IMG/VR virus record: IMGVR_UViG_2541047865_000002
Origin: a virus
Lineage: Duplodnaviria; Heunggongvirae; Uroviricota; Caudoviricetes
Direction: 5' to 3' (one strand)
Length of the DNA: 27,464 nucleotides
Shown here: positions 3,135-20,160 of the stretch, piece after piece
Layout: the number at the start of each line of letters is the position of its first letter
Position numbering within the stretch: position 1 is the stretch's first letter
The notes under the pieces: model-generated
Seen by the model: the letters and a program-made list of their open reading frames with translations, nothing else
The model's database searches: none
Told to the model about the DNA's origin: nothing
Translations under genes and position numbers: made by a program

Positions 3135-3737
3135 ATGAGCTATTTTCTGCGCAAAAAATGGATGGTAAATTTGTCCGGGTCAGGAAAAATTTTATGGGCG
3201 CTAAACATGAAAAAAGATTCGTATCCTTATTTGATTTGCATGACAGTTTCAGGGCTGATCTTTATTTTCCTTTTCTTCTGGTGGCGGGCAGATATCTACA
3301 GGGTCACGTTTCTTAATCAGAGTATATCCCACTATTACATTCTGTTTAGCATGGGAATAGCTTTTCTGTTATCTCTGTTTTGGGTTAAGAAGGGGATAGT
3401 AAAACAAAGAGGCTGGAAGAGTCTGTCAGCATACCTTAAGGTTTATGCAGGGATGTGCATATTTGCTGGATTTTTTCTGATTATACCCCTTACGACACTA
3501 ACTTATTTTTTGCCTGGAGAGACATCGTCTTATGTTGCACCGTATCGGTATACTTCCGGTAGTTCAAAAAGTTGTTCTGGAGCTGAGGTGGATGACCCCG
3601 ATCTACATGAGAATATTCGCATTTGCTATCCGTATGGCAATTATGAGTACGATAATATTATCTATGTTGAAAAGAAAATTAATATATTAGGTGCGGTAGT
3701 GACATATGCACAGACCGCGCGTGATGATACTGAATGA
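3135..3737 (+). CDS. Hypothetical integral membrane protein (about 3 predicted TM helices plus a C-terminal soluble domain of about 75 aa); start may instead be the ATG at 3207
   Basis: 200-codon ORF in visibly AT-rich DNA; hydrophobic stretches LICMTVSGLIFIFLFFWW, ILFSMGIAFLLSLFWV and CIFAGFFLIIPLTTL; transcribed convergently to the phage leftward operon; no family recognised. Confidence 0.55.
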   Translation: MSYFLRKKWMVNLSGSGKILWALNMKKDSYPYLICMTVSGLIFIFLFFWWRADIYRVTFLNQSISHYYILFSMGIAFLLSLFWVKKGIVKQRGWKSLSAYLKVYAGMCIFAGFFLIIPLTTLTYFLPGETSSYVAPYRYTSGSSKSCSGAEVDDPDLHENIRICYPYGNYEYDNIIYVEKKINILGAVVTYAQTARDDTE

Positions 3738-8646: not shown

Positions 8647-9087
8647 ATGCAACCAATTACATACCAACAGACTAGCGGATTTACCCCGACTGCGGTGATA
8701 AATCGTTCTCAAACAAAACAGGCGCCAGGCCACGAAAAAATCCGTGATGCCGTTCGCGCCTGGTCGGCTGCAGATAATCAGGATGTTGTTGCCGCACTCA
8801 TTGTGAATGAGTATCGGGAGCTGGGCGGCGGCACCATCGATTTCCCTGATGATGTCAGCCGTGCACGCCAGAAGTTGTTCCGCTTCCTCGATAACAAATT
8901 CGATTCTGAAAAATACCGAAATAACCTGCGTGAACTGACCCCGGCAATTCTGGCGGTACTACCGCTGGAATATCGCGGCCACCTGGTTGAGCAGGATAGC
9001 TTCATGGCTCGGCTGGTTGAAATGGAAAAGGAACTCAGTGAGGCAAAGCAGGCGGTCATTCTCAACGCACCACGCACCAGAAACTGA
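8647..9087 (+). CDS. YdaT-family protein in the cII position (CII functional analogue), 146 aa
   Basis: Follows the YdaS-like cro as in Rac-type immunity regions; SD AAGGA upstream; the family assignment is from memory of YdaT-like proteins. Confidence 0.65.
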   Translation: MQPITYQQTSGFTPTAVINRSQTKQAPGHEKIRDAVRAWSAADNQDVVAALIVNEYRELGGGTIDFPDDVSRARQKLFRFLDNKFDSEKYRNNLRELTPAILAVLPLEYRGHLVEQDSFMARLVEMEKELSEAKQAVILNAPRTRN

Positions 9088-10201: not shown

Positions 10202-10899
10202 AAAACATCGCCGCACAGATGGTTAACTTTGACCGTGAGCAGATGCGCCGGATCGCCAACAACATGCCGGAACAGTACGACGAAAAGCCGCAGGTACAAC
10301 AGGTAGCGCAGATCATCAATGGTGTGTTCAGCCAGTTACTGGCAACTTTCCCGGCGAGCCTGGCTAACCGGGACCAGAACGAACTGAACGAAATCCGCCG
10401 CCAGTGGGTGCTGGCTTTCCGGGAAAACGGGATCACCACAATGGAACAGGTTAACGCAGGAATGCGCGTAGCCCGTCGGCAGAATCGACCATTCCTGCCA
10501 TCACCCGGGCAGTTTGTTGCCTGGTGCCGGGAAGAAGCATCCGTTAACGCCGGGCTGCCAAACGTCAGCGAGCTGGTTGATATGGTCTATGAGTATTGTC
10601 GGAAGCGTGGCCTGTATCCGGATGCAGAGTCTTATCCGTGGAAATCAAACGCGCACTACTGGCTGGTTACCAACCTGTACCAGAACATGCGGGCCAATGC
10701 GCTTACTGATGCGGAATTACGGCGCAAGGCTGCCGATGAACTGACTTGTATGACCGCGCGAATTAACCGTGGTGAGGCGATACCTGAACCAGTAAAACAA
10801 CTTCCTGTCATGGGCGGTAGACCTCTAAATCGTGCACAGGCTCTGGCGAAGATCGCAGAAATCAAAGCGAAGTTCGGACTGAAAGGAGCAACTGTATGA
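10198..10899 (+). CDS. P: Replication protein P (DnaB helicase loader), 233 aa
   Basis: Near-identical to lambda P as recalled (MKNIAAQMVNFDREQMRRIANNMPEQYDEKPQVQQVAQIINGVF...). Confidence 0.97.
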   Translation: MKNIAAQMVNFDREQMRRIANNMPEQYDEKPQVQQVAQIINGVFSQLLATFPASLANRDQNELNEIRRQWVLAFRENGITTMEQVNAGMRVARRQNRPFLPSPGQFVAWCREEASVNAGLPNVSELVDMVYEYCRKRGLYPDAESYPWKSNAHYWLVTNLYQNMRANALTDAELRRKAADELTCMTARINRGEAIPEPVKQLPVMGGRPLNRAQALAKIAEIKAKFGLKGATV

Positions 10900-11177
10900 C
10901 GGGCAAAGAGGTAATTATTCATTATCTGGAGACGCACAAGAGCTTCTGTGCGCAGGACGTTGCTGCGGCAACAGGTGTGACAGTAACCTGCATAAATCAG
11001 GCAGCAGCTAAAATGGCGCGGGCAGGAATCCTGGTCATTGATGGTAAGGTCTGGCGAACGGTGTATTACCGGTTCGCTACCAGAGAAGAACGGGAAGGAA
11101 AGGTGAGCACGAACCTGATTTTTAAGGAGTGCCGCCAGAGTGCCGCGATGAAGCGGGTGTTGGCGGTATATGGGTGA
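10896..11177 (+). CDS. ren: Ren (Rex exclusion protection protein), 93 aa
   Basis: MTGKEVIIHYLETHKSFCAQDVAAATGVTVTCINQAAAKMARAGILVIDGKVWRTVYYRFATREEREGK... matches lambda Ren; start overlaps the P stop. Confidence 0.9.
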   Translation: MTGKEVIIHYLETHKSFCAQDVAAATGVTVTCINQAAAKMARAGILVIDGKVWRTVYYRFATREEREGKVSTNLIFKECRQSAAMKRVLAVYG

Positions 11178-11590
11178 TTAGTTATTACTTGATTTGATGG
11201 TTATCTCGAAAACATCCAATCAAATTTAATGGTTTGCTTTGTGCGGGGAACTATAACAATGTTTCTAGCTTGGTGCTGTATGAATTAGTGAATTAGTAGG
11301 GAATATATCCACACATTGATTAACACAAAAATATTTTAGATATTAAATGTAACTCAAAGGATGAGTAATAATGGTTGTGTAGCGTATAACAGGATGCTGA
11401 GGTAGTATTAAACAATGAATAAATCTGATTGACAAGCACCAGATAATACTGCGGGTCAATCATTAGACATGAACGCCACTAGTTACTGAGAGTAACTAAT
11501 GGCGTTGTGTTTATAGTTAAGATGTTTTTTAAAACATCAGGGGGGCTCTACTTGTCTTTTTTAATATGATCAATCTCATCATTAAGACAT

Positions 11591-13096
11591 TTATCTATTT
11601 TTTTTTATTAACACATTAATTTCTTCGGTGTTTTGGAGTTGAGTTGTCTTAGAAACAAAAACTCGAATAAAGAATTTAACATAGTGATAGGGTTGAAGTA
11701 CATCGTTATACTTACATAAATCATTTATTGTATACTTGCCGCCTGTTTCTTTTTTTATTATTTTAGCTTGACTTGTATCGATATCTTTAAAGTTATCTTC
11801 AATCTGAAAATCAAGAACCCATTCATCTCCTTTTAAATTATCCTCAATGATTTTGTTGATTTTCTTAGATATATTTTGTTTATATTCTTTGTATCTGTTG
11901 TCGGAAATGTTAACATTAGAAAACGTGTGTTTTTTTTCATATATTTTTTTCCAAACATTTCTATCAACAATATCTTGAATTATAGCTTGAGAATTTTTAT
12001 CTAATGTGTTTTTAAGAGTGTTTTCTAAAAACGTTTTGTCTGGGTTTTCACGATAAAAGTGTTTGATGGACTCAATGAGAGTGTTTTTAGATTTTAAAGA
12101 GACAACATCATCAGTTTTTTTTCTAGAACACGCTTTGTTAAGCATCGCAGATAGTGCACGATTGGTCTTATGAAAATAAACTTGACTATAAAGCCCACTT
12201 CTTGCATTGGCAAATTCTAGTATTGAATCCATACCACTTTCTTTATATGCCAGGTAAACACTATTTTCAACTTTCACAGGAATAAATGACATTAATAATC
12301 GTCCATAATCATAAATCCCATATTTAACGCCGGAGAAGTAGCTATCTCTAAGTAGGTAGTCCATTCTGTCCGCATCTATAGGTGAAGATGATATGATTGA
12401 ACCTAATAAAGGATATACATTTACTCCCTCAATGTTATTTTTAAAATCATATCTTTTATCAACAATTTTTATAATGCTTTCTGGATTAATAGCCGCTATG
12501 TTTTCTTTATAGACATCGTCGTCATTTGATTTATCTTGGGCTTCATTTTTTAATTCTTCAATAATTTCTTTAATAAAAATACATGATACTTGTTCGTGGG
12601 TTAACTTGTCATTATCACTTAAAGATATAATCTTATCGTATTGTTTATTTCCTTCAGTTTTGCATTTTTCTTTGAAATCTTTTACGGATATTGCAAAACT
12701 ATCGAATTGGTGGGCAAGTGGGCCATGCCCAACATCGTGTAACAATGCTGCAATACGTAACTCCTGTATAAGACTTGAAGGCATTTTTTTTATATCTAAA
12801 TATAGATCAATGCCCATATTTTTTCGATTGTAAATTAGTGCATTTAAATCAATATTTTTTAATATTTCATACGATAAATGCATTACACCGACAGAGTGTT
12901 CAAAGCGAGAGTGCATTGCAGAAGGAAATACTTTATATAGAAACGTGTTCTGCCTGATATCTCGTAGTCGTTGGAATAAAGGATGGTCAATTATCTTTTT
13001 TTCTAGCTTAGTTATTCGAATCACTCCATGTATGGGATCTAAAAACTTCCCCAGAAGTAAGTCTTCAAAGTTCTCAAGTTTGTTTTTGTTTGTCAT
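11591..13096 (-). CDS. HD-domain dNTP triphosphohydrolase-like protein (SAMHD1/dGTPase family), 501 aa; candidate anti-phage dNTP-depletion enzyme
   Basis: HD motifs HSRFEHSVGVMHLS, ALLHDVGHGPLAHQFD and DADRMDYLLRDSYFSGVKYG; SD AAGGAAAG upstream; in AT-rich cargo antisense to the phage operon. Confidence 0.8.
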   Translation of the reverse strand: MTNKNKLENFEDLLLGKFLDPIHGVIRITKLEKKIIDHPLFQRLRDIRQNTFLYKVFPSAMHSRFEHSVGVMHLSYEILKNIDLNALIYNRKNMGIDLYLDIKKMPSSLIQELRIAALLHDVGHGPLAHQFDSFAISVKDFKEKCKTEGNKQYDKIISLSDNDKLTHEQVSCIFIKEIIEELKNEAQDKSNDDDVYKENIAAINPESIIKIVDKRYDFKNNIEGVNVYPLLGSIISSSPIDADRMDYLLRDSYFSGVKYGIYDYGRLLMSFIPVKVENSVYLAYKESGMDSILEFANARSGLYSQVYFHKTNRALSAMLNKACSRKKTDDVVSLKSKNTLIESIKHFYRENPDKTFLENTLKNTLDKNSQAIIQDIVDRNVWKKIYEKKHTFSNVNISDNRYKEYKQNISKKINKIIEDNLKGDEWVLDFQIEDNFKDIDTSQAKIIKKETGGKYTINDLCKYNDVLQPYHYVKFFIRVFVSKTTQLQNTEEINVLIKKNR

Positions 13097-13455
13097 GAGG
13101 CTTTCCTTTTGCTGTAGTTATAATACGAAATTTAAATAGTAATGATGTTTATAGTTTCAATGTGTTATCTAATGGTTAACACATTGTGATGTAGCATATC
13201 AATATGGATTCATATGTTCAATTGGTCTGTGGAGTTTAGTTATGAATAAGATTGATTCTGGTAATACTTTGTAGTTTAAGCTAGAGGCGGGATTCGTGAT
13301 GTTCAAATCAGTATGTAATGGAGGTTGTGCATTAGTACTTGCTGCTGGAAATTAAAAATAAAGTTGCAAGTAATCGACGTTTTCCGAGAGGAGAATGTAA
13401 GCATCGCTGACCAAAAAGTATCAACGATGCCTGTTTTGTTTTAACTACAAATTAA

Positions 13456-13716
13456 TTAAATTGCATCTGCAAACTCTGGGATTTTTCGCTCAAGTATGAT
13501 TGATGAGTTGCTGTTGTCGCTTTTTTTATTTTCATGATTACGAATAGCCAATGACTCATTAAAGTCTTTTGCGACTGCTGTCTCAATAAATTCAATTTCT
13601 GAATCAGAGTGTTTTTTAACAGCTTCTTTGATCTCATCCAGAGTAACATAGAAAAACTCTTTTCTACGATTTACAAGATTGACTCTCTTTTTATCGAAGA
13701 CATCATGTAGTTTTTT
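13456..13716 (-). other. -1-frame continuation of the T5orf172 domain (LHDVFDKKRVNLVNRRKEFFYVTLDEIKEAVKKH...), entered at slippery heptamer A_AAA_AAC (13710..13716); either a programmed frameshift or a homopolymer frameshift mutation
   Basis: Manual translation: the domain's expected C-terminal motifs are open for 87 codons in the -1 frame starting exactly at a 7-A run; no ATG in that frame; the zero frame stops 17 codons later. Confidence 0.6.
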
Positions 13717-14957
13717 TCTAATGATGGAGCGTCCTCCGAATAAATCATGGCATGCACATCAAAAATAAAAGGAACAGATGCATCACCAAGCTCATTTACA
13801 CGGTCTTGTGGATCAAGACGTCGTGTCATGCCTATTTTATAAACATTCTCCCCAAAAGAACCTATGTTCGAAATAATATAAACATGACCTTGTTTGGTTT
13901 GTTGTGCCATGGATAATGCTCTTTGATGCTTTGATTCAGCCTGCGACAAACTCTGTTCTAGTTCGGCAATGCGATTTTCGAGGCGCTGCTTCATGTCACC
14001 AGTAACTTTTTCCATTTCCTTTCTTGCAGCTTCAATTGCTTTTTTATAACGGCGCTCTTCTGCCTCTGCGTCTTGCATGGCCTTTTCTATTTCTCGTTGT
14101 GCACGCTCCTCCTCTCTCATTTGTGCCCTTATTTCTGCCTGTTCTTCTTTTTCTTTCTGTTTTTGCTCACGATATTCATGGGTAAGCCACAACTCCTCAA
14201 GTTTTTTATTAAGGTATTTAGTATTTATATATATGTGATTTTGCTCGTTTAGTTTATTTATGGCCTCAAATGCCTTTGTGATGCGTTCTTCCATTTTAGT
14301 GATATTTTTCCACGTGCAATTACTAATTGCAGCATCACATTCATTATTAAATGCTCTAGTAGTTAGCCTAATATTTCTGTCTGTCATTTTTTTACCCTCT
14401 GCTCGAGAGCCTTCAACAGTCCATTGGGTTGTGCAATATACTGCACCAGAGTGGGTTTTATCCCGCAGCATTAATTTCTGTTCATCCCTGATGGATTTTA
14501 TTTTGTTTTTAAATTGCTCTGAATCTTCAAAATTAAAATGAGGTTCGTAAAATCCTAGTTCGGCTAGTTCAACATCTTCTGAATAAATAGAAATTTGCTT
14601 TACTAACTTATCATATATTTCTTTCTTCTCTTTATAAGTTCTTCTTAGTTCTTGGATTTGTTTATTGATACCATCCATTTTTTCAATGGTGTTTGTTAGT
14701 TCATTATTGGCATTTTCTTTTACTTTTTGGGACTCTTCTTTTATAATGGAGCATTCTTGCTCTGTTTTCTCAATAAGCTTCTTACATTCCTCTTCCACAT
14801 TAAAATAATCTGCAAAGCGAGATTTGTATTCTTCATTTTTTTGATTGCTATCACTTAATTCTAATTGTATTTTTTTGATGCGTTTGATTGCAGCTATATA
14901 TAGAACAAGAACAACCAATAAAAATATGATTGCAAGTAATAGTGGAGTTTGAGTCAT
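13671..14957 (-). CDS. Membrane-anchored coiled-coil protein with DUF4041 and the N-terminal part of a T5orf172 (GIY-YIG-like) domain; 428 aa in the zero frame
   Basis: N-terminal TM helix LLLAIIFLLVVLVLYIAAI; long coiled-coil (EERAQREIEKAMQDAEAEERRYKK...); DUF4041-like core; C-terminal GHVYIISNIGSFGENVYKIGMTRRLDPQDRVNELGDASVPFIFDVHAMIYSEDAPSLE; SD AAGGAA upstream. Confidence 0.85.
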   Translation of the reverse strand: MTQTPLLLAIIFLLVVLVLYIAAIKRIKKIQLELSDSNQKNEEYKSRFADYFNVEEECKKLIEKTEQECSIIKEESQKVKENANNELTNTIEKMDGINKQIQELRRTYKEKKEIYDKLVKQISIYSEDVELAELGFYEPHFNFEDSEQFKNKIKSIRDEQKLMLRDKTHSGAVYCTTQWTVEGSRAEGKKMTDRNIRLTTRAFNNECDAAISNCTWKNITKMEERITKAFEAINKLNEQNHIYINTKYLNKKLEELWLTHEYREQKQKEKEEQAEIRAQMREEERAQREIEKAMQDAEAEERRYKKAIEAARKEMEKVTGDMKQRLENRIAELEQSLSQAESKHQRALSMAQQTKQGHVYIISNIGSFGENVYKIGMTRRLDPQDRVNELGDASVPFIFDVHAMIYSEDAPSLEKNYMMSSIKRESIL

Positions 14958-15383
14958 TCGTGCTATTCCTTACGGACAATTTAAGACGTTTTGTATTAAA
15001 TCCTGTTCAATGTGTATGCGGGTGATTGCTACCGCTTACAATCTTCATAATTATCAGTTAGATAGACTCGCTAGTAAATAATTTCATTTTTTGCAATATT
15101 CTTATTGAATATTTCAATTTATGAAATGAGCTCTTTATCCTTTCAAGGCGAAAGGTTTCTTCTTCGGAAATATTTGCTCTCGTGTGACGTATAAAGGCCT
15201 TTGATTTTTAAAAAACAGTAGGAAATAATATAGTTACTGTCGGCCTGAACACCCGGCGGTGGGGTTGCGCTAAACGGGGACGTTTATGCGCACATACAAT
15301 CTAAACTCTCTTCTCCCTTCACAGATGCAGAAATGCACCTGCGATTTTTTGCATCCAACGTTTGACCTCTGCGGAGGTGAAGC

Positions 15384-15839
15384 ATGAACCTACCACAAGA
15401 TGGCATCAAATTACATCGTGGCAACTTCACCGCTATCGGCCAGCAGATCCAGCCTTATCTGGAGGACGGAAAATGCTTTCGCATGGTGCTTAAACCGTGG
15501 CGTGAGAAACGCAGTCTTTCCCAGAGTGCACTCAGCCACATGTGGTACAGCGAAATCAGTGAATACCTTATCAGCAGGGGTAAAACGTTCGCCACTCCAG
15601 CTTGGGTAAAAGATGCTCTCAAACACACATATCTCGGTTATGAAACCAAAGACCTGGTTGATGTCGTAACCGGTGATATCACCACTATCCAGTCGTTACG
15701 CCATACCTCCGACCTTGATACCGGAGAGATGTATGTCTTCCTGTGTAAGGTTGAAGCCTGGGCGATGAATATTGGCTGCCACCTGACTATTCCGCAGAGC
15801 TGCGAGTTCCAGCTGCTGCGTGATAAGCAGGAGGCGTAA
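15384..15839 (+). CDS. ybcN: YbcN-like nin-region protein (DLP12 ybcN homologue), 151 aa
   Basis: Protein recalled as DLP12 YbcN; first gene of a tightly overlapping nin block. Confidence 0.85.
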
Positions 15840-16009
15840 TGGCTACACCGCTTATTCGTGTCATGAACGGACACATCTACAAAATACCAAATCGTCGTAA
15901 GCGTAGGCCTGAGCTGAAACCATCCGAAATACCAACACTGCTCGGATATACCGCCAGCCTGGTTGATAAAAAATGGTTGCGACTGGCAGCAAGGAGGAAT
16001 CATGGCTGA
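15839..16009 (+). CDS. ninE: NinE-like protein, 56 aa
   Basis: Manual translation [56 protein letters not shown]; ATG overlaps the ybcN stop (TAATG) and its stop overlaps the ybcO start. Confidence 0.75.
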   Translation: MATPLIRVMNGHIYKIPNRRKRRPELKPSEIPTLLGYTASLVDKKWLRLAARRNHG

Positions 16010-17406: not shown

Positions 17407-17931
17407 TTATTGTTTAACCCATAATAATTCATTGACATTGAATCCCAACTTTTGAGCGGTTCGCACATAGTCTGCTTTTACTTTATCTGGAATAGTTGGG
17501 GTCCTTGCCAGAATCCATAGGTATTCTCTGTTCGGACCACTGACAAGAGCATACTTATACTCATCATCCAGTTTGATTACATTATAGCCACCATAGAAGG
17601 GGCCAAAAAACGAAACCTTCAACGCTGCAGTTTTAGTATCTCCAGTAAAGTATGCTTTACCTTCGCTCTCGCTCCATTTATTTTTCGTTGGATCGTATCC
17701 ACGGTTAAGTACACGAATCCCTCCGTCGTTCCGTTTTCCATAAGTAGCGCTGACCTGTTCCAGACCACGTTCGAATCGGTTCTCGAGGCGAGCTATTTCA
17801 TACCACTTTCCGAGGTAGCGGTTGGCGTCAAAATTTGTAATCGGCTGCACACCTTTAGGTGGTGTCGGGACCTTACATGCTATAAGAGTGAAAGAGAGTG
17901 CAATGCCAGTCAACACAGGCCATAACTTCAT
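17407..17931 (-). CDS. Blc-like bacterial lipocalin, outer-membrane lipoprotein, 174 aa
   Basis: Signal peptide with lipobox (LIAC); strong similarity to E. coli Blc as recalled (FDANRYLGKWYEIARLENRFERGLE...SEGKAYFTGDTKTAALKVSFFGPFYGGYNVI...YLWILARTP). Confidence 0.85.
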   Translation of the reverse strand: MKLWPVLTGIALSFTLIACKVPTPPKGVQPITNFDANRYLGKWYEIARLENRFERGLEQVSATYGKRNDGGIRVLNRGYDPTKNKWSESEGKAYFTGDTKTAALKVSFFGPFYGGYNVIKLDDEYKYALVSGPNREYLWILARTPTIPDKVKADYVRTAQKLGFNVNELLWVKQ

Positions 17932-18123: not shown

Positions 18124-19083
18124 ATGATAAAAAAACCTGTGATTGGAATCAGCGGTTGTCTGGCCGGTTCTGCTGTTCGTTTTGATGGTGGTCACAAAAG
18201 AGCTGACTTTTTAATGGACAAATTAGTGGAATGGGTAACATTCAGACCAGTATGTCCGGAAATGGCTATAGGGCTGCCAGTTCCGCGTCCTGCTCTACGT
18301 CTTGTGCGCTCGACGCAAGGAAATATACGGATGTGTTTCAGCCACGACCAGAATGAGGATGTGACAGAGAGAATGACAGAGTTTAGTCGTTCTTATATGG
18401 ACAAATTAAAGGATGTATCGGGGTTTGTGGTTTGTGCTAAATCTCCCAGCTGTGGCATGGAGCGCGTGCGTGTCTATGATGAAAATGGTAATCGAGGTCG
18501 TAAAGATGGAGTGGGACTATTTACGAGCACTTTGATGGAAAAGTTTTCCTGGCTACCGGTTGAAGAGGATGGGCGATTACATGATCCAGTGCTTCGTGAG
18601 AATTTTGTTGAAAGAGTTTTTGCTTTGCATGAGCTCAATCACCTTTACAAGGAGAAATTATCAAGAAGAGAGTTATTAGCTTTTCATAGTCGTTATAAGC
18701 TTCAGTTGTTGGCGCATAGTCAGGCAGGCTATAAAGATATGGGACCATTTGTGGCTGCAATACACGAGTGGGCGGACCTTGAATCATACTTTGAGGTGTA
18801 TCGTGATAAGCTGATGGCGATTCTCAGAAAACCTGCATCACGTAAAAATCACACGAATGTGCTGATGCATATACAGGGGTATTTTAGTAACTACTTAAGT
18901 ACACGCCAGCGTAAAGAGTTGAGCGAGGTTATACTTAACTATCGTTCTGGCACATTACCTCTTCTTGCGCCGTTGACTCTGCTGAAGCATTATCTGGGTG
19001 AGTATCCTAATGATTACTTGCTTACACAGAATTACTTCGATCCCTATCCGGACGAACTGGCTCTAAGACTGATGGTAAATTAA
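18124..19083 (+). CDS. DUF523 (TudS-like, putative Fe-S thiouracil desulfidase) plus DUF1722 (YbgA-like) fusion protein, 319 aa
   Basis: N-terminal VIGISGCLAGSAVRFDGGHK with conserved Cys residues (C12, C44, C104/C109); C-terminal YbgA-like half; strong SD GGGGGAGGA. Confidence 0.75.
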   Translation: MIKKPVIGISGCLAGSAVRFDGGHKRADFLMDKLVEWVTFRPVCPEMAIGLPVPRPALRLVRSTQGNIRMCFSHDQNEDVTERMTEFSRSYMDKLKDVSGFVVCAKSPSCGMERVRVYDENGNRGRKDGVGLFTSTLMEKFSWLPVEEDGRLHDPVLRENFVERVFALHELNHLYKEKLSRRELLAFHSRYKLQLLAHSQAGYKDMGPFVAAIHEWADLESYFEVYRDKLMAILRKPASRKNHTNVLMHIQGYFSNYLSTRQRKELSEVILNYRSGTLPLLAPLTLLKHYLGEYPNDYLLTQNYFDPYPDELALRLMVN

Positions 19084-19425: not shown

Positions 19426-20160
19426 GTGGATAATATGCCATACATATGTTCTATCATTTTGGTGTTGAACTCGTTTGATGTCCGAATTGGTAAAGAAGAT
19501 ATTTTATTTAAAAAAGGAAGTGCTGTTCTCATTGATTACAATTTAAAAGATTTTTTTTCATCAAATATAGATCATGCAATGATCGTAGATGTTGAAGAGA
19601 AAACAGTTAATGATTTCTTTAAAAGCAACACACTCTCACCTTTTTCTGTAAGAAGGTTTTATCCGGCATACTTGATGGTGGAATGTGAAGATTTTTCATT
19701 GTTAAAGAACTTGATTGCATGCTTGAATTGTGATGGCAGAACTGTGGATTTTGTTAGAAATCAAATATCACTTGCATGTCTTGCTATCTTATCTTCAGAG
19801 AAAATAGTGCAAAGTTTTTTATTTGGATGTCTTAATAGTTTAGGAAGTAAAGTTAAGGCTATTATTCACACGGATATATCTGCAGCATGGAGACTTTGTG
19901 ATATATCTTCAAGACTGTATCTGAGTGAAAGTCTGTTAAAAAGAAAATTAAAGCACGAAGGCTTATCATTTAGTAAGTTAATTCTTGAAGAGCGAATGGT
20001 GATGGCGGAAAGGTTATTAAGCTACAATTTATATTCTGTTGGAAAAGTTACTGAGATATGCGGTTATGAAAACACGTCATATTTTGTAAGTGTTTTCAGA
20101 AGATATTTTGGTGTTCCTCCCCATCAATATTCATCAAGATTTTTTTTAGAAAAGACATGA
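19426..20160 (+). CDS. AraC/XylS-family transcriptional regulator, 244 aa
   Basis: C-terminal double HTH (…ERLLSYNLYSVGKVTEICGYENTSYFVSVFRRYFGVPPHQY); gene is visibly AT-rich with rare-codon flavour, suggesting horizontal acquisition. Confidence 0.85.
   Translation: MDNMPYICSIILVLNSFDVRIGKEDILFKKGSAVLIDYNLKDFFSSNIDHAMIVDVEEKTVNDFFKSNTLSPFSVRRFYPAYLMVECEDFSLLKNLIACLNCDGRTVDFVRNQISLACLAILSSEKIVQSFLFGCLNSLGSKVKAIIHTDISAAWRLCDISSRLYLSESLLKRKLKHEGLSFSKLILEERMVMAERLLSYNLYSVGKVTEICGYENTSYFVSVFRRYFGVPPHQYSSRFFLEKT

Follow-up and report, generated by a model that had tools for sequence, protein, structure and literature searches.

SNIPE, described as PD-lambda-1 by Vassallo et al. 2022 (PMC9519451) and mechanistically by Saxton et al. 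(Nature 2026, PMC13190303), is a membrane-anchored DUF4041/GIY-YIG nuclease, which was shown experimentally to cleave siphovirus DNA during injection. Its defence activity requires DUF4041 and residue E414, and an induced lambda prophage is unharmed by it (PMC13190303), so that a lambdoid prophage can carry SNIPE safely. The bacterial enzymes hydrolyzing deoxynucleoside triphosphates (dNTPases) that have been validated in phage defence so far are of the Dgt type, including Sp-dGTPase (Tal et al. 2022), CloA of Clover (PMC12265719) and Vdg of Vibrio (PMC13519002). Tal et al. 2022 reported that a direct alignment of their defensive dGTPases with SAMHD1 was not possible, and a 2026 review pointed out that bacterial SAMHD1-like defence proteins may remain unidentified. 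Here, we analyzed a DNA stretch of 27,464 nucleotides (Caudoviricetes; IMG/VR record IMGVR_UViG_2541047865_000002; hereafter the window), which is a lambdoid prophage integrated beside ybhC. Between ren and the nin region, it carries an AT-rich segment (11174–15265) with two leftward genes, one for SNIPE and the other for a predicted dNTPase with an HD domain of the SAMHD1 type (hereafter the HD gene). Two modules, which meet at 13390/13391, make up the segment, and it is likely, in our judgement, that these are two independent, self-contained moron cassettes that would give the lysogen a layered superinfection defence.

The segment differs clearly from its surroundings in composition. The guanine-cytosine (GC) content is 32.8% in 11174–15265, against 48.5% in the left flank and 45.9% in the right flank, and this stretch of about 4.1 kb has the lowest GC content for its length in the 27.5-kb window, whose mean is 0.459 with a standard deviation of 0.061. 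GC at third codon positions (GC3) is 0.25 for the HD gene and 0.29 for SNIPE, as compared with 0.51–0.59 for O, P and ybcN. The cargo holds two leftward open reading frames (ORFs), 11591–13096 (501 amino acids) and 13671–14957 (428 amino acids), which are separated by 359 bp and are each preceded by an AAGGA-type Shine-Dalgarno sequence, as read from the sequence. An earlier note on this DNA had described an AT-rich cargo containing two large leftward genes antisense to pR transcription, about 360 bp apart and each with its own Shine-Dalgarno sequence; windowed GC, GC3 and the ORFs confirmed this description. The note had further placed the insertion exactly between the ren stop codon (11177) and ybcN (15384). 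The location at the ren–nin junction stands, but the edges had to be moved to 11173/11174 and 15265/15266, since BLAST comparison with lambda and three sequenced lambdoid phages showed that the backbone homology ends at 11173 and restarts at 15266, 118 bp to the left of the proposed right boundary. On the left, the junction lies within codon 94 of ren (10896–11177, plus strand; identified by the PHROG Ren-like exclusion protein family, E 1e-40, and BLAST breakpoints), which consists of 93 codons here. On the right, the resumed backbone (15266–15839, plus strand; BLAST and PHROG) includes orf33 (33 codons, 15286–15387) as well as ybcN, which encodes a NinB-family protein (15384–15839). The slot for the cargo opens right after Ren codon 93 and closes 20 nucleotides before orf33.

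This ren–ninB/ybcN slot is variable among lambdoid phages. The comparison with lambda at the ren–nin junction, which the earlier note had proposed, gave a slot of only 73 bp in lambda, and the slot is occupied by an acyltransferase and a lipoprotein gene in PhiR30_1, by Rha and several small genes in PhiR5_1, and by PD-lambda-1 and Rha in PhiR26_1. In the six phages compared, the Ren C-termini share the sequence ...MKRVLAVYG and differ after it, with VKR in lambda, DMNLNLL in PhiR26_1, RTTA in PhiR5_1, RLVIT in strain TB354 and an immediate stop in the window. As in the P2/P4 hotspots (Rousset et al. 2022, PMC9122126), a fixed slot between conserved phage genes receives interchangeable AT-rich, often antisense accessory or defence cassettes, although the slot is here the lambdoid ren–ninB/ybcN junction. 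We found no paper that describes the ren–ninB slot as a hotspot. The 89 bp that open the right-hand backbone (window 15266–15354) are present twice in PhiR26_1 (L003, 4759–4847 and 6693–6781), where they flank the Rha module, suggesting that this segment serves as a recombination linker for adding cassettes to the slot.

The module boundary within the segment was evident from comparison with PhiR26_1, which matches window positions 13391–15354 at 97.5% and does not contain 11174–13390. The SNIPE cassette (13391–15265), delimited by BLAST and a genome survey, comprises the upstream region, the gene and a hairpin. The HD cassette (11174–13390), which comprises the gene and its conserved non-coding flanks, is missing from SNIPE-only prophages and from PhiR26_1. 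Among 5426 complete E. coli genomes, 131 have the SNIPE module and 21 have the HD module; nearly identical copies of the whole cargo are present in 21 RefSeq complete genomes. In WP2-S18-ESBL-07, the slot between ren and orf33 contains SNIPE and no other cargo.

Given that all 21 E. coli copies of the HD gene adjoin SNIPE with the same junctions, and that all seven IMG/VR contigs carrying the E. coli HD allele (at least 98.6% identity) also carry SNIPE, the two genes might be regarded as one two-gene system in which HD is required for SNIPE or regulates it; their shared orientation would also allow read-through from SNIPE. We nevertheless find this highly improbable. HD is missing from 110 of the 131 SNIPE-bearing genomes, none of the 23 loci in other genera whose HD homologue has at most 76% identity carries a SNIPE relative in its flanks, a hairpin with a 13-bp stem as well as the 359-bp gap lies between the genes, and SNIPE alone suffices for defence experimentally (PMC13190303). 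A single system was rejected on these distribution data, and HD and SNIPE are separate cassettes.

The SNIPE gene (footprint 13456–14957, minus strand) encodes a transmembrane (TM) helix, DUF4041 and a GIY-YIG (T5orf172) domain. The PADLOC PD-Lambda-1 model (PDLC03976) matched the window copy with an E-value of 3e-169 and the intact copy with 1e-198, covering positions 1–485 of the 491 positions of the model. In the window ORF, DUF4041 (Pfam PF13250) was detected at residues 198–252 (E 9.5e-20), and the translation contains a putative N-terminal TM helix at residues 5–23 (PLLLAIIFLLVVLVLYIAA) followed by KRIKK. For the intact protein of the near-identical prophage L001 of E. coli 2018-11-3CC, Pfam identified DUF4041, MUG113 and a complete T5orf172 domain (residues 357–449, E 7e-17). 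The intact 500-residue protein is identical at 496 of 500 positions (99%) to the protein annotated as PD-lambda-1 in PhiR26_1, and all nine residues named in the SNIPE paper (E223, N250, L253, W257, E264, K305, I308, T319 and E414) are found at identical numbering. In RefSeq, the relatives are named "SNIPE associated domain-containing protein". Judged from these matches, the DUF4041/T5orf172 gene is SNIPE, an already characterized system, with which it shares the domain order (TM helix, DUF4041 and C-terminal GIY-YIG/T5orf172) and the occurrence as a single-gene system in lambdoid prophages. The earlier note had taken it for a TM/DUF4041/T5orf172 anti-phage gene, which agrees with the PADLOC and Pfam results. 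Two differences from published SNIPE should be mentioned: it is here stacked with an HD gene that is not part of the published system, and the window copy is frameshifted at codon 416, so that only the first half of its nuclease domain remains and the C-terminal tail is missing. Regarding SNIPE itself, our analysis offers nothing new; what is added is its genomic context, namely the bounded slot and the repeated knock-out in complete genomes.

We next compared the window copies of both genes with those of L001, which is 99.4–99.9% identical to the window. The cargo differs from that of L001 by three changes, one substitution and two single-nucleotide indels. The SNIPE frameshift is in a T7 run at 13711–13717 (A7 on the coding strand, A8 in intact copies), two residues after E414. 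The reading frame is maintained up to residue 415, and thus E414 is present, while the frame is lost at residue 416 and the remaining 85 codons (13456–13710) are out of frame. As a result, the GIY-YIG domain is incomplete: T5orf172 was not detected by Pfam in the window protein, and the MUG113 match covers only positions 1–41 of the 73-position profile. In the HD gene, a run at 11598–11606 is T9 in the window and T8 in relatives, which shifts the frame at codon 500 and replaces the last 16 residues by two, giving 501 amino acids versus 515 in the intact protein.

These changes raise the question of whether the island in this strain is a decaying remnant, with real frameshifts in SNIPE and HD and a non-functional cargo. 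Both genes have frame-changing indels relative to a near-identical prophage, and independent SNIPE disruptions were found elsewhere, namely IS1 insertions at two different sites (Evo1, L013; TB354, L014), an IS5 insertion (OZ392478) and single-nucleotide homopolymer deletions in T5 and T7 runs (HH45, L106; EC1, L107), suggesting frequent loss. On the other hand, over 21 kb the window differs from L001 by five indels, all of which are single-base; four are in homopolymers (CC, T8, T8 and A5) and four hit ORFs that are intact in relatives. Single-base, mostly homopolymer indels in otherwise intact ORFs are a signature typical of homopolymer sequencing error, and both SNIPE frameshifts found elsewhere are likewise single-nucleotide homopolymer deletions. 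The frameshifts in the window are thus either sequencing errors or real inactivation. Similarly, the repeated disruption of SNIPE reflects either a costly, often-lost gene or A/T runs that draw assembly errors. We consider a decayed island a serious possibility, although we lean somewhat against it. Note that the three indels outside the cargo are located at 9074, 20149 and 20243; the CC-run indel is inside the YdaT-like gene at the cII position, and the A5-run indel is at the 3' end of the helix-turn-helix (HTH) gene downstream of Q.

The second gene (11548–13096, minus strand; window ORF 11591–13096 with a Pfam HD match) is predicted to encode a SAMHD1-type HD deoxynucleoside triphosphate (dNTP) triphosphohydrolase. 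By phmmer, the protein was matched to the Aquifex protein 2hek (E 6e-30), to EF1143 of E. faecalis (E 7e-27) and to human SAMHD1 (E 4e-26 over residues 19–430). An AlphaFold2 model built with 41 homologues had a mean predicted local distance difference test (pLDDT) score of 87.9 and a predicted template modelling (pTM) score of 0.89. When this model was searched against the PDB with Foldseek, the top 50 matches were all SAMHD1 (human and fungal; E ~1e-18), with alignments of about 510 columns and target-normalised template modelling scores of 0.63–0.72.

The residues that are invariant in the 41 homologues correspond closely to the SAMHD1 active site. Specifically, the metal site H67, H120, D121 and D243 is equivalent to SAMHD1 H167, H206, D207 and D311, and the catalytic histidines H124, H129 and H167 are equivalent to H210, H215 and H233, the last equivalence being read from the shared THEQ motif rather than from the phmmer alignment columns. 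In addition, invariant R64, R244, Y247, D251, R299 and Y307 correspond to SAMHD1 R164, K312, Y315, D319, R366 and Y374; substitutions were found at two SAMHD1 positions, L150 (N50 in HD) and Q375 (F308). Based on the sequence alignment alone, the guanine-specific allosteric site 1 has equivalents in D37, Q42 and R45 (SAMHD1 D137, Q142 and R145), where Q42 and R45 are invariant and D37 is in the family consensus but outside the invariant columns. The same alignment indicates that allosteric site 2 is partly kept: SAMHD1 D330, R333, H376 and K377 are retained, with the equivalents of H376 and K377 among the invariant positions, R352 is replaced by K, and both K354 and N358 are replaced by S.

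From these comparisons, the HD protein is a predicted dNTPase-like enzyme of the SAMHD1/EF1143 type. The earlier note had called it HD dNTPase-like, and Pfam HD, phmmer and AlphaFold2/Foldseek allow this to be refined to the SAMHD1 type. With SAMHD1, EF1143 and 2hek, it shares direct sequence alignment (E 1e-26 to 1e-30), the full-length fold, the HDxGHGPxxH motif, the H..HD..D metal site, substrate-binding residues and the equivalents of allosteric site 1. Unlike SAMHD1, it has no SAM domain, its identity is only about 23%, and several allosteric site 2 residues are replaced (K354S, N358S and L150N). It also differs in being borne by prophages as a cassette of 30% GC.

The HD protein resembles the Dgt-type defensive enzymes Sp-dGTPase, CloA and Vdg in belonging to the HD superfamily, in being encoded by a single gene near defence systems, in its predicted chemistry (dNTP to deoxynucleoside and triphosphate) and in the predicted restriction of phages through nucleotide depletion. 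However, it is of a different lineage, being directly alignable to SAMHD1 and lacking a CloB-like partner. The PADLOC dGTPase model scored only 16–17 bits over residues 59–153, and TIGR01353 gave 22.1 bits against a cut-off of 152.35. Neither a Dgt nor a CloA chain was among the PDB sequence matches of HD at E ≤0.01, and no CloB-like nucleotidyltransferase was found beside HD, whose neighbours are ren and SNIPE. Furthermore, the motif HDVGHGPLAH contains His/His as in SAMHD1, not the His/Glu dyad of Dgt-type enzymes, which is described in PMC12265719 and PMC13519002. We thus rejected HD as a Dgt-type defensive dGTPase, with family profiles under threshold and no His/Glu dyad, and likewise rejected Vdg and CloA as its relatives, both being of the Dgt type with this dyad.

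To place the HD gene in its genomic context, we examined its homologues. Within the clade of at least 64% identity, the gene has 28–32% GC in host flanks of 34–60% GC, and the non-coding flanks are conserved for 150–260 bp upstream and 100–300 bp downstream in E. coli, Proteus, Enterobacter and Serratia. The low GC content and the portable flanks indicate a mobile accessory cassette rather than a core metabolic gene. In P2-like prophages of Yersinia enterocolitica and Y. ruckeri, HD occupies an antisense position with gpV on one side and gpS on the other. Its neighbours are CBASS in a Proteus island and HigBA in Enterobacter, and in a metagenome contig it is surrounded by integrase fragments, UmuDC and AbiGi. 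More distant homologues (43–47% identity) are found next to a complete Kiwa system or within the tail-gene regions of viral contigs. In one of these IMG/VR contigs (L119, 7791–9209; also L128), Kiwa (KwaA, E 3e-82; KwaB, E 5e-121) is directly beside a homologue of 47% identity, and the contig also carries genes for a C5 DNA methylase and a DUF968 protein. HD falls into PHROG 35128, a family of phage proteins without an assigned function. A tblastn search against sequenced phages gave 13 records, none of them lambdoid; some Klebsiella matches are terminal in their prophage records, and host DNA may account for them.

Two E. coli alleles of HD, those of the window (11700–12900) and of SCU-111 (L015), are 80–90% identical within the gene and 84% identical at the protein level, with a ratio of nonsynonymous to synonymous substitution rates (dN/dS) of 0.24. 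Their insertion junctions are identical, the cassette flanks are 95–100% identical and the adjacent SNIPE genes differ by nine nucleotides. The confinement of the differences to the gene suggests that recombination exchanged the allele while the insertion itself stayed in place.

From this context, HD is probably a second defence gene beside SNIPE. The earlier note had associated both domain families with anti-phage activity; this is experimentally established for SNIPE, and for HD such a role is deduced from its genomic setting. Alternatively, HD could be a dNTP-pool housekeeping or fitness enzyme that rides on prophages and is not an immune gene; it might trim stationary-phase dNTP pools or tune the mutation rate, like EF1143 or the K. 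pneumoniae homologue. That homologue is chromosomal and has no mobile or defence neighbours, the locus of one homologue of 74% identity has no recognisable defence genes nearby, and the closest bacterial proteins with solved structures are 2hek and EF1143 (2o6i). Neither of these two is known as a defence protein. Against this alternative, the clade of at least 64% identity is nearly confined to moron positions of prophages and to small variable islands, in several cases beside known defence systems, and the homologues of 43–47% identity are also present in viral contigs, one next to Kiwa; its GC content of 28–32% in hosts of 52–60% GC and its portable flanks argue in the same direction. We therefore regard a housekeeping role as unlikely, while still giving it appreciable weight.

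We also considered that HD might serve the phage in lytic growth or counter-defence, through degradation of signalling nucleotides or reshaping of the dNTP pool. The gene is phage-borne, and the HD superfamily includes phosphodiesterases that degrade signalling nucleotides, both of which would fit such a role. Very little credence can be given to it, however, as HD is oriented against the early and late operons of lambdoid as well as P2-like prophages, which is the arrangement of morons expressed in the lysogen, and the residues conserved in it match the SAMHD1 set for dNTP binding and catalysis rather than the set of a cyclic-nucleotide phosphodiesterase. We found no paper describing this HD clade as a defence gene; the P2/P4 hotspot paper (PMC9122126) and Vassallo 2022 (PMC9519451) mention no HD protein.

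A layered defence by the two cassettes could operate as follows. HD and SNIPE oppose pR transcription, so that both could be expressed in the lysogen. SNIPE, anchored in the inner membrane at the injection site, cuts incoming siphovirus DNA and spares resident DNA and an induced prophage, as was shown experimentally for a protein having these residues at identical numbering. HD would hydrolyse dNTPs to deoxynucleoside and triphosphate, thereby starving the replication of phages that had passed the entry barriers. Its activity would probably be turned on by allosteric nucleotides, as is that of SAMHD1 and EF1143. With both cassettes, the lysogen would be defended against superinfection in two layers, one at entry and the other at replication. 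After induction, convergent pR transcription may damp HD and SNIPE.

Several observations weigh against this interpretation. In K. pneumoniae, a homologue of 44% identity belongs to the conserved chromosomal genes (its cluster has 3530 members), so that the wider HD family includes probable housekeeping enzymes, and both dNTP degradation and phage protection by this HD clade are activities that we infer. PADLOC v2 does not contain this clade except for the partial dGTPase match of 16–17 bits. The pairing of HD and SNIPE in E. coli may derive from a single ancestral insertion rather than from a selected combination. Promoter-like matches are not above the level of shuffled sequences, so that the independent expression of the two genes is presumptive. 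Finally, the window SNIPE lacks its last 85 residues, and the island as written may therefore be without SNIPE defence.

A more far-reaching possibility is that HD is a true bacterial restriction factor of the SAMHD1 lineage, borne by prophages and gated by nucleotides: it would be quiet in the lysogen and become active when dNTPs surge upon phage infection, stacked in E. coli with SNIPE and with the conserved inverted repeat upstream of it as a control element. We put this forward tentatively, as its chance appears somewhat short of even. If true, the SAMHD1 lineage itself, and not only the distant Dgt-type dGTPases, would be an antiviral effector common to bacteria and animals. Should HD defend, the list of immune effectors common to prokaryotes and eukaryotes would become longer, and a tractable bacterial model for SAMHD1-type allostery would be available. 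The HD gene is the only new lead of this study: an uncharacterised member of the SAMHD1/EF1143 family in a defence-like setting, SAMHD1-like in alignment and fold over its full length, and travelling as a single-gene cassette among lambdoid and P2-like prophages and defence islands.

We further examined the non-coding parts of the segment. Of the traits expected for morons, atypical composition and opposed orientation were seen and a strong hairpin follows each gene, with promoter matches remaining at the shuffle level. About 40 nucleotides 3' of the HD stop codon, a hairpin with a 16-bp stem is present (11472–11506; −29 kcal/mol, z-score −5.9), which is terminator-like on both strands without a clear T tract on the minus strand. 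Folding also identified a 7-bp hairpin directly 3' of the HD stop codon (11521–11538, minus strand). The hairpin with the 13-bp stem (13400–13432, minus strand; −22.7 kcal/mol, z-score −4.4) lies 24 nucleotides after the SNIPE stop codon, and the HD/SNIPE module boundary is just beyond it. Note that the terminator evidence was taken from folding of the regions after stop codons; no minus-strand terminator meeting the T-tract rule was found in 10800–15600. In the same range, the scan gave 17 promoter-like matches versus 17.2 ± 4.0 in shuffled sequences, showing no excess.

Upstream of the HD gene, 60–90 bp from its start, there is a perfect 10-bp inverted repeat, CAATGTGTTA-N9-TAACACATTG (13158–13186), which overlaps a TTGAAA-16-TATTTA promoter-like pair that has no statistical support. 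This repeat is a candidate operator, or the HD cassette may use it as a recombination handle. Across genera, the HD upstream region (window 13097–13260; L007, L008, L016, L102 and L104) contains an invariant CCATATTGATATGCT box, and in the Enterobacter copy of the inverted repeat, one paired change from G:C to A:T leaves the symmetry intact. The SNIPE upstream region (14958–15265, minus strand) contains an inverted repeat at 15081–15127 and a sigma-70-like match of 9/12 at 15078–15050. Rfam searches over 10500–16000 gave no matches at E ≤0.1. Small ORFs in the three intergenic stretches were not convincing, and none is annotated there in RefSeq relatives. Within orf33, a short distance 5' of ybcN, the sequence at 15326–15343 (plus strand) can form a hairpin with a T tract that resembles a terminator (z-score −2.7, only a modest difference from shuffled sequences); it may be the tR2 equivalent in nin regions of this type.

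The remaining backbone is that of a lambdoid prophage. In L001, the gene order is int, xis, exo/bet/gam, repressor, cro-like, YdaT-like, O, P and ren to the left of the cargo, and orf33, ybcN, ninE, ybcO, rusA, ylcG, Q, lysis and terminase to the right. Other AT-rich accessory genes, named according to the RefSeq annotation of L001, are also found in the window. Specifically, these encode a hypothetical protein of 200 amino acids near int/xis (3135–3737, plus strand), a Blc-like lipocalin (17407–17931, minus strand), a YbgA-family protein (18124–19083, plus strand) and the HTH protein downstream of Q (19426–20160, plus strand), the latter two lying in a stretch of 31–34% GC.

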